Source: Escherichia coli
Lineage (GTDB): Bacteria; Pseudomonadota; Gammaproteobacteria; Enterobacterales; Enterobacteriaceae
Assembly (NCBI RefSeq): GCF_003018235.1
Contig: NZ_CP027437.1
Direction: 5' to 3' (one strand)
Length of the DNA: 64,000 nt
Shown here: piece after piece, positions 49,854-56,041 of the stretch
Layout of the letters: each line of letters starts with the position of its first letter
How positions within the stretch are numbered: position 1 is the first letter of the stretch
Made by a program: the position numbers and the translations under genes
The notes under the pieces: model-generated
What the model saw: only the letters and a program-made list of their open reading frames with translations
What the model was told of the DNA's origin: nothing
The model's database searches: none

Positions 49854-49856
49854 ACC

Positions 49857-49900
49857 ATACGCACAGAATGTGATGCCAGCACTCTGTGCGTATGCTTTTA
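49857..49900. terminator. Bidirectional hairpin terminator between eamA and the PTS-islet regulator
   Basis: 12-bp stem catacgcacaga / tctgtgcgtatg followed by cttttat. Confidence 0.55.
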
Positions 49901-50596
49901 TCGCGGGAAAAAGTACTTTACCTGGAACTCGAAAATATTGCTGTAAAGTAACGAATAATCCAGCGGAATAGAGTTACTGTCCACAGCCTGGGTCTGAATT
50001 TTAAGTATGGGATCCCGTGGGCTGATCCGTAAAATACTGGCGATTTCTGGGGTAGGAAAAGTAGGGGAGAAAGTTTCAAAGGTGCCAATGATTTTGATCC
50101 CGCATTCGTTCTCAATATACGAAAATTTGGATTTTTGCATATGTGCTACGGTTAAATCAGGAAAACGTGCCACTGACATCCACGTTTCTTCTAATTGTGC
50201 TGCATTATCCTCAATGAATCGCAGTCTCTTTATGTAATAAACCTGCTCACCAGTCACTAAATTCAGCTCAGTCGCAATAGGGGGAGAAGCATCCTGCACT
50301 TCAAATTTCATAATCTGACTTCCTGCCTCCTTGCCGCTTTTATGCGCAATTTCACTGAAGCTGTTCATGTGATCAATGTGTGCAACAAAATTCTTTTTTT
50401 GAATATATGTTCCTGAACCATGCTTTCTATGAATAATTCCTTCGCCTTCCAGCAAGGATAATGCCTTACGCAGGGTATTACGCGAAACATTATAACGAAC
50501 AGCGAGTTCAGCTTCTGACGGCAACAAATCACCAACATGCCATGAATAGCCATTGATCTCGGATTTAAGTAAGCGGGCAATCTTTTGAAAAATCAC
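49898..50596 (-). CDS. GntR/HutC-family transcriptional regulator (probable repressor of the adjacent PTS operon)
   Basis: N-terminal winged HTH, C-terminal UTRA-like domain; GTG start with SD aaggtg; divergent from the PTS operon. Confidence 0.8.
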   Translation of the reverse strand: MIFQKIARLLKSEINGYSWHVGDLLPSEAELAVRYNVSRNTLRKALSLLEGEGIIHRKHGSGTYIQKKNFVAHIDHMNSFSEIAHKSGKEAGSQIMKFEVQDASPPIATELNLVTGEQVYYIKRLRFIEDNAAQLEETWMSVARFPDLTVAHMQKSKFSYIENECGIKIIGTFETFSPTFPTPEIASILRISPRDPILKIQTQAVDSNSIPLDYSLLYSNIFEFQVKYFFPR

Positions 50597-50794
50597 TTTT
50601 GCACCTTTTAAGAGCCATTGAAAACAAGGAGTTGAGTCCTGATTGGTTTATCGTATGGCCGAGTCGTTTAATTATTACCCTGATGTTGAACAACTTTATT
50701 GCTGTATTACTGTGATCAATGTACCAGGACGTATAGCTACTGCGGGATATGATATTTACACAATGTAATCTGTTATATACCAGTAAGGGAAAAT

Positions 50795-51106
50795 ATGAAA
50801 AAGATATTGTTAGTTTGCGCTGCGGGCATGTCAACCAGTATGCTGGTTAAACGTATGATTGATCATGCTAACGCTATTTCACTTGAAGTTAATATTTCCG
50901 CATTGGCGATTGCAGAGGCTAAAGGGAAAATTAAAAATAACGAAGTTGACGTTGTTTTACTTGGCCCGCAAGTTCGCTTTCAGAAACCAGAGATTGAAGC
51001 TGTTGCACAGGGGAAAATGCCTGTAGCTGTTATCGAGATGAAAGACTATGGCACCATGAACGGACAGGCAGTTCTTGAATTTGCGATGAAACTACTGCAA
51101 GAGTAA
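50795..51106 (+). CDS. PTS lactose/cellobiose-family EIIB
   Basis: MKKILLVCAAGMSTSMLV with phospho-acceptor Cys, 103 aa. Confidence 0.85.
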   Translation: MKKILLVCAAGMSTSMLVKRMIDHANAISLEVNISALAIAEAKGKIKNNEVDVVLLGPQVRFQKPEIEAVAQGKMPVAVIEMKDYGTMNGQAVLEFAMKLLQE

Positions 51107-51220
51107 GAATCTAATATTATTAAACTATTACCTGAACTAACTTTTCACACATCATAAAATGGATATGGCATACATGCTTTATTGGGATGTATAAATATCC
51201 AGAACAACACGTATAAAAAA

Positions 51221-52570: not shown

Positions 52571-52882
52571 ATGTTTGCAGATGAAGAACTTGTTATGGAG
52601 TTACTGATCAACGCGGGACAGGCACGTTCTGATGCGATGGAAGCCATACGTTGTGCCGGGCAAAAAGACTGGCAGGGCGCAACTCAGCTAATGGCCAGTT
52701 CGGAATTAGCCTGTCTTCAGGCACATAAGATTCAGACCGCGTTAATTAGTCAGGATGAAGGTTGTGGCAAAATAGTAGTTAATTTAATTCTGGTTCATGC
52801 ACAGGATCATTTGATGAATGCAATATTATGCCAGGATTTAGCCAGGGAAATTATTTCATTAAGAAAAGAGCTCCATGCCTGA
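52571..52882 (+). CDS. PTS lactose/cellobiose-family EIIA
   Basis: About 103 aa helical protein with conserved His, like ChbA; start chosen by SD spacing. Confidence 0.8.
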   Translation: MFADEELVMELLINAGQARSDAMEAIRCAGQKDWQGATQLMASSELACLQAHKIQTALISQDEGCGKIVVNLILVHAQDHLMNAILCQDLAREIISLRKELHA

Positions 52883-52937
52883 TTTTTTCCTCCAGTGCGA
52901 TAGCTGGAGGAAATTATTACACTCTTAAGGATAAGTC

Positions 52938-54611
52938 ATGAATATAAAGACGATTAACGTCAGCCTTTTGTCTTTTTCTATTATTACAGCATTGTTTCCG
53001 TTGAACGCGTTGGCAACAAAATTAACCATTGAGCAGCGCCTTGAACTGCTTGAAAATGAATTGTCGCAAAATAAACAAGAGCTGAGAGCAACACAGAATG
53101 AACTGGGGGTATATAAATCCCGACTTTCGACCTTACAAAAAAGTATTACGGAAAATAAATACAAATCAGCCTCACTTGCTGAAATATCAGCGACATCTCC
53201 CGTCGCTGATAACATCAAAAATGAAAACGGTGAACAGAACTCGTCTGCCGCAGCGCATACTATAAATGGATCGCAGCAAGTTGCCGTTATTGAAAGTAAA
53301 GGCGACAAAACCACTATCGAAAGCGTGACCCTGAAAGATATCAGTAAATATATAAAGGATGATATTGGGTTCAGCTATCAGGGGTACTTCCGCTCAGGCT
53401 GGGGTACCGGAAATCATGGCTCACCACAAACTTATGCAGCGGGTTCTCTGGGACGTTTTGGTAACGAGATGAGCGGTTGGTTTGACTTAACCTTAAATCA
53501 GCGTGTTTATAATCAGGACGGTAAAACGGCAAATGCGGTCGTTACCTATGATGGCAACGTAGGTGAGCAGTATAACGATGCCTGGTTTGGTGACAGTGCC
53601 AATGAAAATATCATGCAGTTCAGTGATATTTATCTGACAACGCGAGGTTTTTTACCCTTCGCGCCAGAGGCAGACTTCTGGGTAGGCAAACATAAACTCC
53701 CGCAATATGAGATCCAAATGCTGGACTGGAAAACCTTAACCACGGATGTCGCTGCGGGTGTGGGGATTGAAAACTGGGCACTTGGTGTAGGGCTGTTTGA
53801 TATGTCCTTAAGCCGTGATGATGTCGATGTTTACTCTCGTGATTTTACGCGTACCAGTCAGATGAATACCAATTCTGTGGATGTTCGTTATCGCAATATC
53901 CCGTTATGGGATGATGCAACATTATCATTAATGGCTAAATATTCCGCACCAAATAAAACGGATCAACAACAAGATAATGAAAATGACGACAGTTATTTTG
54001 AAATGAAAGATAGCTGGATGCTGACTTCTGTTTTACGGCAAAACCTGCAACGCGATACGTTTAATGAATTTACGTTACAGGTTGCCAATAATTCCTATGC
54101 CAGCAGTTTTGCCAGTTTCTCAGATGCCAGTAACACGATGGCGCATGGTCGCTATTACTATGGTGACCATACCAATGGGATCGCCTGGCGTTTAATCTCT
54201 CAGGGCGAGATGTATCTTACTGACAATATTATTATGGCTAACGCGCTTGTCTATTCTCATGGCGAAGATGTTTATAGTTATGAAAGTGGCGCTCATAGTG
54301 ATTTTGACAGTATTCGCACCGTAGTAAGACCGGCCTGGATCTGGAATACATGGAATCAGACGGGGCTTGAATTAGGCTGGTTTAAGCAACAGAACAAAAC
54401 ACAGCAGGGTGTAACACTAAATGAATCGGCTTATAAAACGACACTCTGGCATGCATTGAAAGTGGGTGAAAGCATTTTAGGTTCACGACCAGAAATTCGC
54501 TTCTATGGAACGTATATCAATATTCTGGATAACGAATTATCGAATTTTAAGTTTAATGAGAACAGCAAAGACGAGTTTATGGCCGGCATCCAGGCGGAAG
54601 TCTGGTGGTAA
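52938..54611 (+). CDS. LamB-superfamily sugar porin with N-terminal coiled-coil extension (ScrY/BglH-like)
   Basis: Signal peptide, about 50-aa coiled coil, beta-barrel alternation, C-terminal ...EVWW. Confidence 0.7.
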
Positions 54612-54635
54612 TCTATTTTAGTTAAGGAGTTGTGT

Positions 54636-55985
54636 ATGTCAGGATTTAAAAAAGGTTTTTTATGGGGTGGCGCGGTAGCCGCGCATCAGTTGGAAGGTGG
54701 CTGGAATGAAGGAGGAAAAGGCATCAGTATCGCTGATGTGATGACTGCTGGCGCTCACGGTGTGCCGCGTGAAGTGACAGAAGGCGTTATCGACGGACTT
54801 AATTATCCCAATCATGAAGCAATTGATTTTTATCATCGCTATAAAACAGATATTCAGTTATTTGCCGAGATGGGATTCAAATGCTTTCGAACTTCCATTG
54901 CCTGGACACGAATCTTTCCGCAAGGTGACGAACAGGAGCCGAATGAAGAGGGTTTAAAATTTTATGATGATCTGTTCGATGAATGCCTGAAGCAGGGAAT
55001 GGAACCTGTGGTGACGCTTTCGCATTTTGAGATGCCTTATCATCTGGTGACAAAATATGGTGGCTGGCGAAACCGTAAACTGATCGACTTTTTTATCCGC
55101 TTCGCATCAACGGTCTTCACGCGCTATAAAGAAAAAGTAAAGTACTGGATGACGTTTAACGAAATCAATAATCAGGTGAATTTCAGCGAAAGCCTGTGTC
55201 CATTTACTAATTCCGGTATCTTGTATTCGCCAGAGGAAGATATCAATGAGCGCGAACAAATAATGTACCAGGCGGTACATTACGAGTTAGTTGCCAGTGC
55301 TCTGGCAGTACAGACTGGAAAATCGATCAATCCTGAATTTAATATCGGCTGTATGATCGCCATGTGCCCCATCTATCCTCTGACGTGTGCACCCAACGAT
55401 ATGATGATGGCCACGAAAGCGATGCATCGTCGTTACTGGTTTACTGATGTTCATGCGCGTGGATATTATCCGCAACATATGCTGAATTACTTTGCCAGGA
55501 AAGGATTCAACCTCGATATCACACCAGAAGATAATGCGATTCTTGCCAGAGGTTGTGTCGACTTTATCGGCTTTAGCTACTACATGTCTTTTACGACACA
55601 ATTTTCGCCAGATAACCCGCAACTGGATTATGTTGAGCCACGAGATTTGGTCAGCAACCCTTATATCGATACATCCGAATGGGGATGGCAAATTGATCCG
55701 GCAGGGCTACGTTATTCACTCAACTGGTTCTGGGATCATTTCCAGTTGCCGCTGTTTATTGTCGAAAATGGATTTGGTGCGGTTGACCAGAGACAAGCTG
55801 ACGGCACGGTGAACGATCACTATCGCATTGATTACTTTGCTTCCCATATTCGGGAAATGAAAAAGCGCTACGGAATGATTTACGTCGATAAAGACAACGA
55901 AGGGAAGGGAACGCTGGAACGGATACGTAAAGCGTCGTTTTACTGGTATCGGGATCTCATCGCCAACAATGGCGAAAATATTTGA
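54636..55985 (+). CDS. GH1 6-phospho-beta-glucosidase
   Basis: Acid/base TFNEIN and nucleophile IVENGFG motifs; SD aaggag. Confidence 0.9.
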
Positions 55986-56041
55986 GACTTCAGGAAGATA
56001 TTACGGAGATATCAGGCTCTGTGATCAGAGCCTGACAATAA

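Follow-up and report, generated by a model that had tools for sequence, protein, structure and literature searches.

The question raised by the DNA studied here, a 64,000-nucleotide stretch of the Escherichia coli contig NZ_CP027437.1 (assembly GCF_003018235.1; hereafter the window), is what the islet of sugar-utilization genes at 49854-56041, between eamA and marB, actually is, whether it can work in this strain, and how it came to lie at this site. A sequence-only reading had taken it for a self-contained beta-glucoside module of unknown substrate, and implicitly for an insertion relative to E. coli K-12. We find that the islet is very probably the bgc locus, in which bgcR is divergent from bgcE-bgcF-bgcI-bgcH-bgcA, i.e. 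an accessory and normally silent system for cellobiose and aryl-beta-glucosides, that its bgcA step is probably broken in this strain, and that the locus is not a recent insertion. The system itself is already known, having been characterised in 2009; what is new is the strain-level deletion allele, its recurrence, and the updated numbers for the polymorphism at the eamA-marB junction.

The identification is carried by gene content and order, since the window holds a divergent GntR-type regulator followed by the IIB, IIC and IIA components of a phosphotransferase system (PTS), a porin and a glucosidase, which is the arrangement described for bgc. One description presents bgc as a five-gene operon that includes PTS IIB, IIC and IIA and a phospho-beta-glucosidase, and BgcR as a GntR-type regulator exerting positive control over it (PMC3585215, citing the 2009 paper). 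Together with chb, asc and bgl, bgc is counted as one of the four cryptic beta-glucoside operons of E. coli (PMC4488073), and in strain CFT073 a run of six genes, c1955-c1960, annotated as "PTS system, cellobiose specific", was reported to be absent from K-12 MG1655 (PMC2831201). In CFT073 we found the same six genes, and no others, in the interval from marB to eamA, and we linked this locus to c1955-c1960 by position and gene count, the old c-numbers being absent from the RefSeq table. The operon is reportedly the subject of a study by Neelakanta, Sankar and Schnetz (2009, Appl Environ Microbiol), which is said to have assigned the letters BgcE to IIB, BgcF to IIC, BgcI to IIA, BgcH to the porin and BgcA to the glucosidase, and to have described both a dependence on CRP and a promoter-up mutation, "bgc*". 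The likeness thus extends over gene order, the eamA-marB site in CFT073, presence in CFT073 and in Escherichia albertii, homologues in Citrobacter, and absence from K-12, whereas the window copy differs from the published operon by a 90-bp in-frame deletion in bgcA. No database source names these proteins Bgc, generic names being the only ones in use. The view that the substrate is unknown is accordingly out of date, as the same gene set is the published operon for cellobiose, arbutin and salicin, and the correct label is bgcR-bgcEFIHA rather than a PTS islet of unknown substrate, a correction of little significance beyond annotation.

Gene calls were made by combining a listing of open reading frames (ORFs) with profile searches of the window proteins, and both agree with the gene content and the family assignments that had been read from the sequence (Table 1). 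The six genes fill the interval exactly as had been proposed, from the base after the end of eamA (49853) to the base before the end of marB on the minus strand (56042), with gene starts that match the RefSeq annotation of a strain carrying a 99.4%-identical islet, and bgcR, bgcE, bgcF, bgcI and bgcH are all intact and of full length. BgcR joins an N-terminal winged helix-turn-helix to a C-terminal UTRA effector domain, which places it in the HutC subfamily of the GntR family; it reached no NCBIfam equivalog cutoff, and so receives no specific orthologue name. Its gene starts at a GTG preceded by a Shine-Dalgarno (SD) sequence, AGGTG. Enzyme II (EII) of the lactose/cellobiose family is present as three separate proteins (EIIB, EIIC, EIIA), and BgcH has the signal peptide (...LNALA/TK) and the N-terminal coiled-coil extension of the ScrY/BglH type that mark it as a LamB/ScrY/BglH porin. 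The GC content is 42.5% in the islet, about 48% in its flanks, and lower still in the control region between bgcR and bgcE. A hairpin lies at each end of the islet. The left one had been proposed as a terminator, and folding bears this hairpin out (plus strand: dG, the folding free energy, -22.8 kcal/mol, z -4.2; minus strand: -27.6 kcal/mol, z -5.0); despite a weak T-run (CUUUUAU) it looks like a bidirectional terminator. The right hairpin occupies the position of the K-12 eamA-marB hairpin GCCCCGAGATGTCGGGGC. Neither was listed by a consensus terminator scan, owing to its rules for loops and T-runs, and both are supported by folding.

Table 1. Features of the bgc locus, followed by other features of the 64,000-nucleotide window (coordinates are window positions)
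Feature	Position	Strand	Details
Left hairpin, convergent eamA/bgcR	49856-49894	both	12-bp stem CAUACGCACAGA/UCUGUGCGUAUG
bgcR	49898-50596	-	GntR helix-turn-helix PF00392, 8e-19; UTRA PF07702, 6e-30; HutC-type
Divergent control region	50597-50794	.	198-bp bgcR-bgcE spacer, 36% GC
Imperfect dyad	50662-50694	.	AGTCGTTTAA-N13-GTTGAACAAC; degenerate inverted partner AGTCGTTTAA at 50662-50671
CRP-like box	50711-50726	+	TGTGA-tcaatg-TACCA
Candidate -10, TATGAT	50748-50753	+	In block GGATATGATATTTA, invariant between E. coli and E. albertii
Near-palindrome ctgttatataccag (CTGTTATATACCAG)	50770-50783	.	6/7 complementary pairs
bgcE	50795-51106	+	PTS EIIB, lactose/cellobiose family, PF02302; N-terminal LLVCAAGMSTS with Cys
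bgcE-bgcF spacer	51107-51220	+	114 bp, AT-rich, unusually long for adjacent PTS subunit genes
bgcF	51221-52543	+	PTS EIIC permease, lactose/cellobiose family, 440 aa; PF02378; TIGR00410, 339 bits vs cutoff 236
bgcI	52571-52882	+	PTS EIIA, lactose/cellobiose family, PF02255; VHAQDHLM motif with conserved His
bgcH	52938-54611	+	Outer-membrane LamB-family sugar porin; PF02264, 9e-82, 276.5 bits; Sugarporin_N PF11471, 29.2 bits
bgcA, deletion allele	54636-55985	+	GH1 6-phospho-beta-glucosidase, 449 aa; NF007154, 937.6 bits vs cutoff 624
Deletion junction in bgcA	55852-55864	+	Sole remaining copy of GGGAAATGAAAAA; two copies 90 bp apart in full-length alleles
Right hairpin, convergent bgcA/marB	56012-56035	.	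10-bp stem, loop UGAU, no T-run; found by folding
sok	2068-2242		Rfam
Prophage HNH endonuclease	3207-4256
cspA-type thermoregulator leaders, two	7490-7913, 10390-10775		Rfam
Prophage large terminase	13713-15815
Prophage tape-measure protein	22651-25746
Prophage central tail fibre J	28138-31533
Prophage tail fibre	32258-35677
IS009	36020-36218		Rfam
STnc560 Hfq-binding small RNA family	47143-47356	+	Full-length match, 280 bits; just upstream of the mgtS/ydeE region

The mechanism that we propose draws on the protein families and the published description. Beta-glucosides would pass the outer membrane through the porin BgcH and would be taken up, and phosphorylated at O6', by the EIIC permease BgcF, with the phosphoryl group handed from phosphoenolpyruvate to EI, HPr, BgcI (EIIA) and BgcE (EIIB), and BgcA would then cleave the product to glucose-6-phosphate and glucose or an aglycone. 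Transcription would proceed from the AT-rich spacer between bgcR and bgcE, for which CRP with cyclic AMP and the GntR/HutC-type activator BgcR are reportedly required, and the wild-type promoter, reportedly too weak by itself, supports growth only once a point mutation has strengthened it. A slippage-type deletion between 13-bp repeats has cost the bgcA of this strain 30 codons, and the final cleavage step is probably broken. The locus would here be a decaying copy that could at most import and phosphorylate its substrates, hydrolysis being left to other enzymes.

It is this deletion on which the description of the islet as self-contained fails, as it removes active-site residues of the enzyme. 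The bgcA gene of the window is 90 bp (30 codons) shorter than that of nearly all other islet carriers and stays in frame to its natural stop; full-length islet matches span 6275-6278 bases compared with the 6188 of our query, i.e. 87-90 bp more, and fall into two aligned pieces (29 of the 29 matches listed). Alignment places a clean 90-bp in-frame gap between two 13-bp direct repeats, GGGAAATGAAAAA, so that BgcA has 449 instead of 479 amino acids and lacks residues 411-440 of the full-length protein, and the NF007154 match of the short protein splits in two with a profile gap after position 407 of 476. The closest solved structure is that of SmBgl from Streptococcus mutans (PDB 3pn8, 4f66, 4f79, 4gpn), with which full-length BgcA aligns end to end (3pn8/4f79; E 4e-241, about 1e-240) and whose catalytic Glu, -1 subsite and loop L8a the full-length allele retains, whereas the window allele is without the equivalents of residues 409-438, to which the deleted segment corresponds in the alignment. 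In SmBgl, Trp423 and Ala431 belong to the -1 glucose subsite, and loop L8a (430-440, including Lys438 and Tyr440) binds the phosphate (PMC3605045). The short BgcA has therefore lost the equivalents of Trp423 and Ala431, most of L8a, and the region of beta8, the last strand of the barrel, and does not have the full set of elements of a functional GH1 enzyme. With the Trp, most of L8a and the adjoining strand region gone, the short BgcA is probably inactive, and the operon in this strain should be treated as probably defective. Because 26 public contigs encode the identical 449-amino-acid protein and five complete genomes share the junction, we rejected an assembly artefact as the source of the deletion. 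Automatic annotation labels the 449-amino-acid protein as a normal 6-phospho-beta-glucosidase.

A 41-base probe that matches only the deletion junction (window 55838-55878) was found in 5 of 5426 complete E. coli genomes, and these five represent two haplotypes, which are told apart by 12 sites of bgcA lying to either side of the junction. The deletion haplotypes are that of the window, that of HH194M, ET151 and ET450, and that of FDAARGOS_1059 and O111:H2 12A. One of the latter two is 100% identical to many undeleted alleles and the other 99.9%, and over 3.1 kb 1 single-nucleotide polymorphism (SNP) separates the window allele from the undeleted allele L001, compared with 63-67 SNPs between it and the other two haplotypes that carry the deletion. 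As each deletion haplotype has its nearest relatives among undeleted alleles, the site appears to be a recurrent deletion hotspot, for which at least three independent slippage events are the simplest reading. The 13-bp repeats correspond in the protein to a duplicated EMKK motif; E. albertii has kept them, and in Citrobacter they are imperfect. A repeat-mediated deletion of this kind is a homoplasic gene inactivation, and could mislead phylogenies or pan-genomes that treat it as a single event. Other lineages carry unrelated damage to bgc, e.g., a deletion in NZ_AP027822.1 (L002) that extends from within eamA as far as the final 139 bp of the islet, a loss in FDAARGOS_1059 and O111:H2 12A that takes in the 5' end of bgcR, the promoter, bgcE and the beginning of bgcF, and an insertion sequence (IS), IS1, within bgcA in NZ_CP051158.1, a pattern that fits relaxed selection. 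That selection, beyond a hotspot and relaxed constraint, has repeatedly favored the loss or alteration of BgcA with the transporter and porin kept is in our estimate a very slim chance; if it were true, one possible reason would be toxic aglycones freed from plant aryl-glucoside phosphates.

How the locus came to this site can be approached from its distribution. The sequence-only reading had proposed a comparison of eamA-marB junctions and had the K-12 map right, as eamA and marB of MG1655 lie 30 bp apart with nothing between them. Across the same 5426 complete genomes the islet is present in 2563 (median one copy per carrier, highest three) and the K-12-type empty junction, detected with a 71-base probe specific to it, in 2449, and the remainder of about 414 genomes, which match neither, may hold a third junction type or larger rearrangements. 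The junction is therefore an approximately 50:50 polymorphism, and it adds to the picture of a slow erosion of cryptic beta-glucoside systems that has been described for bgl. The 2009 study is said to have described the locus as "mainly B2", whereas it proves far more widespread among present-day complete E. coli genomes, 47% of which carry it. Islets at least 99% identical to that of the window account for 306 records and those at 95-99% for 2259. This spread within E. coli, about 2%, is similar to the divergence of the flanking genes from K-12 and from other strains.

Beyond the species, bgcR-bgcEFIHA directly adjoins marB in E. albertii, where in nucleotide sequence the bgc genes are 79.5-85% identical to the window, and marB, marA, marR and ydeA 82.6-90.6%. 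Citrobacter sp. On2M has the complete gene set, with a BgcR that is 72% identical, and tblastn found none of eamA, ydeE, marB, marA, marR, marC or ydeA at its bgc locus; C. amalonaticus has relatives of the regulator and EIIC only. On the left the islet has its edge inside the final three codons of eamA (KVRG here, KVGS in K-12), where 5 of 9 bases differ, and the right edge falls at the marB-proximal hairpin, whose stem differs in sequence from that of K-12 at the same position by changes that keep the pairing. Both edges (49844-49853 and 56012-56041) are far more diverged from K-12 than the 98%-identical flanks, which fits two old haplotypes at the junction. Taken together, the distribution favors an old presence/absence polymorphism, in which the locus would already have stood at this site when E. 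coli and E. albertii diverged, and K-12-type lineages would have lost or replaced it. The islet ends share no repeat longer than 7 bp, and of the integrase, transposase or IS that would be expected in a mobile island none occurs among the genes of the islet, which are the six bgc genes only; with neither repeats nor mobility genes, we rejected an origin by a mobile element. A tblastn search of the plasmid collection with BgcR returned only mislabelled chromosomes or fragments and approximately 35%-identical paralogues, and thus gives no evidence of mobility. Several of the "plasmid" records that carry the locus are 4.8-4.9 Mb long and evidently mislabelled chromosomes.

The control of the locus was approached by aligning the bgcR-bgcE spacer of E. 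coli, E. albertii and two Citrobacter loci, with blocks restricted to Escherichia taken from the comparison of E. coli with E. albertii. A scan of species-representative genomes for BgcR gave three loci only, in three species, and this small number limited phylogenetic footprinting. The block that holds the SD sequence and start of bgcR is invariant in five loci from three genera-level groups. Upstream, the palindrome GTTGAAC contains a TGAAC core (50687-50691) that does not vary among E. coli, E. albertii and the two Citrobacter loci, and the imperfect dyad of which this core is part is a candidate site for an upstream regulator, perhaps BgcR. Also invariant across genera is ACTGTGAyCAA (50709-50719), the left half of the CRP-like box with its flank. 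If TATGAT is taken as the -10 element, the CRP-like box would be centered near -41.5 and the GTTGAAC box near -70, a predicted layout that would suit the reported control by CRP and an activator. The motif recurs within the operon: a second TGAAC-type box, TGAACTAACTTT, lies at 51133-51144 in the bgcE-bgcF spacer and is followed by TTCACACATCA, and the block ATTACCTGAACT(A/T)ACTTTTCACACATCA, which is kept in both E. coli and E. albertii, has the same TGAAC..AACTTT motif as the promoter region; it may serve as a promoter or a regulatory site inside the operon. Three copies of TGAAC(N)AACTTT are present in the window compared with 0.17 expected, at 50687, 51133 and 61597, the third being inside the ORF at 61523-62935 that is annotated as sad in related strains.

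Several points weigh against parts of our reading of the islet as a decayed and long-resident bgc locus, and two alternatives are weighed with them. The identity as bgc rests on architecture, on secondary descriptions and on the CFT073 locus, and not on a direct comparison with the i484 sequence. The positions given for the start of transcription and for the sites of CRP and BgcR are all predicted; the CRP-like box has two mismatches, and such matches occur in the window at the level of chance (28 found, 30.9 expected), the CRP assignment being drawn from conservation and the literature and not from the match to the consensus. We infer the loss of BgcA activity from homology mapping, and the short protein still has the catalytic Glu motifs of a GH1 enzyme, TFNEIN for the acid/base and IVENG for the nucleophile, aligned with the catalytic positions of SmBgl, as well as the Lys-Arg-Tyr (KRY) of the phosphate site at the end of the loop. 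The retained Glu motifs would serve the explanation that the islet is a working beta-glucoside module in this strain, either with an active short BgcA or with its transporter paired to BglA, AscB or BglB. E. coli has other phospho-beta-glucosidases able to cleave arbutin- or salicin-phosphate, the five remaining genes are intact, and bgcA is in frame, scores well above its NF007154 cutoff, and persists in its short form on the 26 public contigs. What decides us is that the segment deleted holds the -1 subsite equivalents, most of the phosphate-binding loop and the region of the last barrel strand, that the unrelated damage in other lineages is of the kind relaxed selection would leave, and that even intact bgc is reported to be cryptic (PMC4488073); a working module is in our judgment quite improbable. 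The other alternative, a genomic island recently inserted in this lineage with the K-12 arrangement as the ancestral one, would draw on the low GC of the islet compared with its flanks, on the closest solved homologue of BgcA being from S. mutans (70-75% identity to the Streptococcus enzyme, by eye from the alignment), on the full gene set of Citrobacter sp. On2M lying without the flanking genes of the window, and on the scarcity of BgcR relatives among species representatives. The low GC and the Streptococcus-like BgcA do show that the genes were once horizontally acquired, so that "ancient" is a relative term. Recent arrival in this lineage is nonetheless very unlikely in view of the islet's identical position beside marB in E. 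albertii, where it has diverged about as much as the flanking genes, the differences of about 2% among E. coli haplotypes, as in the flanks, and the near-equal frequency of carriers and empty-site genomes; the islet, moreover, shows no integrase, IS or target duplication, and no tRNA was noted, no tRNA scan having been made. The insertion relative to K-12 that the sequence-only reading implied thus gives way to the old polymorphism.

A further alternative concerns regulation, and holds that BgcR is a HutC-type repressor, released by a phospho-sugar, that acts at CTGTTATATACCAG, with the promoter on one side and the ribosome-binding site of bgcE on the other. This near-palindrome had been put forward as a candidate operator; it is present and conserved in Escherichia, and a candidate operator it stays, with the reservations that follow. 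The block at 50770-50782 (CTGTTATATACCA) is invariant between E. coli and E. albertii amid diverging neighbors, and is followed by the SD sequence AAGGGA of bgcE (50785-50790); its reverse complement, TGGTATATAACA, loosely resembles the TGGT-N4-ACCA operators of HutC-type regulators, for which the UTRA domain of BgcR is typical; and the related BguR is a repressor with a palindromic operator, AAAAATGTCTAGACAAATTT (PMC3585215). The block is, however, not conserved in Citrobacter, including strain On2M with its 72%-identical BgcR, and 14-mers of this quality occur at 1.5 per kb in the window, or approximately 0.3 expected per 198-bp spacer, which is within chance. The blocks invariant across genera (TGAAC and the CRP-like box) lie upstream. 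The near-palindrome follows the likely -10, where a repressor would be expected to act, yet BgcR is said to exert positive control (PMC3585215, with reference to the 2009 paper). On balance we think a repressor role unlikely, and prefer the reading of BgcR as an activator of bgc, with a predicted site upstream of the promoter.

The bgc locus is distinguished by its components from the related systems it resembles. Like bgc, the bgl operon (bglG-bglF-bglB-bglH) is a cryptic aryl-beta-glucoside PTS with a LamB-family porin (BglH) and a GH1 phospho-beta-glucosidase, and its AT-rich sequence is retained to a varying extent across E. coli lineages (PMC2646131), but it lies at a different chromosomal site and relies on a glucose-family EIIBCA permease and the antiterminator BglG, in contrast to the three-protein lactose/cellobiose-family EII and GntR/HutC regulator of bgc. 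The chb/cel operon (chbBCARFG) shares with bgc the separate lactose/cellobiose-family EIIB, EIIC and EIIA and is likewise cryptic for cellobiose, and the NCBIfam chitobiose models are the second-best matches for the EIIC and EIIA of the window, but all bgc proteins score below the chb equivalog cutoffs, and chb differs in having an AraC-type regulator, control by NagC, a GH4 hydrolase (ChbF) and a deacetylase, and no porin. Regulators that resemble BgcR control lactose/cellobiose-family PTS and GH1 genes in the bgu system of Streptococcus pneumoniae (BguR) and the gmu system of Bacillus subtilis (GmuR) (PMC3585215). Both of these are repressors that act at a TGT-N4-ACA palindrome overlapping the -35 element, whereas BgcR is a reported activator and no such palindrome is conserved here, and the bgu and gmu systems, which are Gram-positive, have no porin, unlike bgc with its BgcH.

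Elsewhere in the window, approximately the first 37,000 positions are taken up by a lambdoid prophage, whose recognized genes and the neighboring Rfam matches are given in Table 1 along with a small RNA of the STnc560 family.

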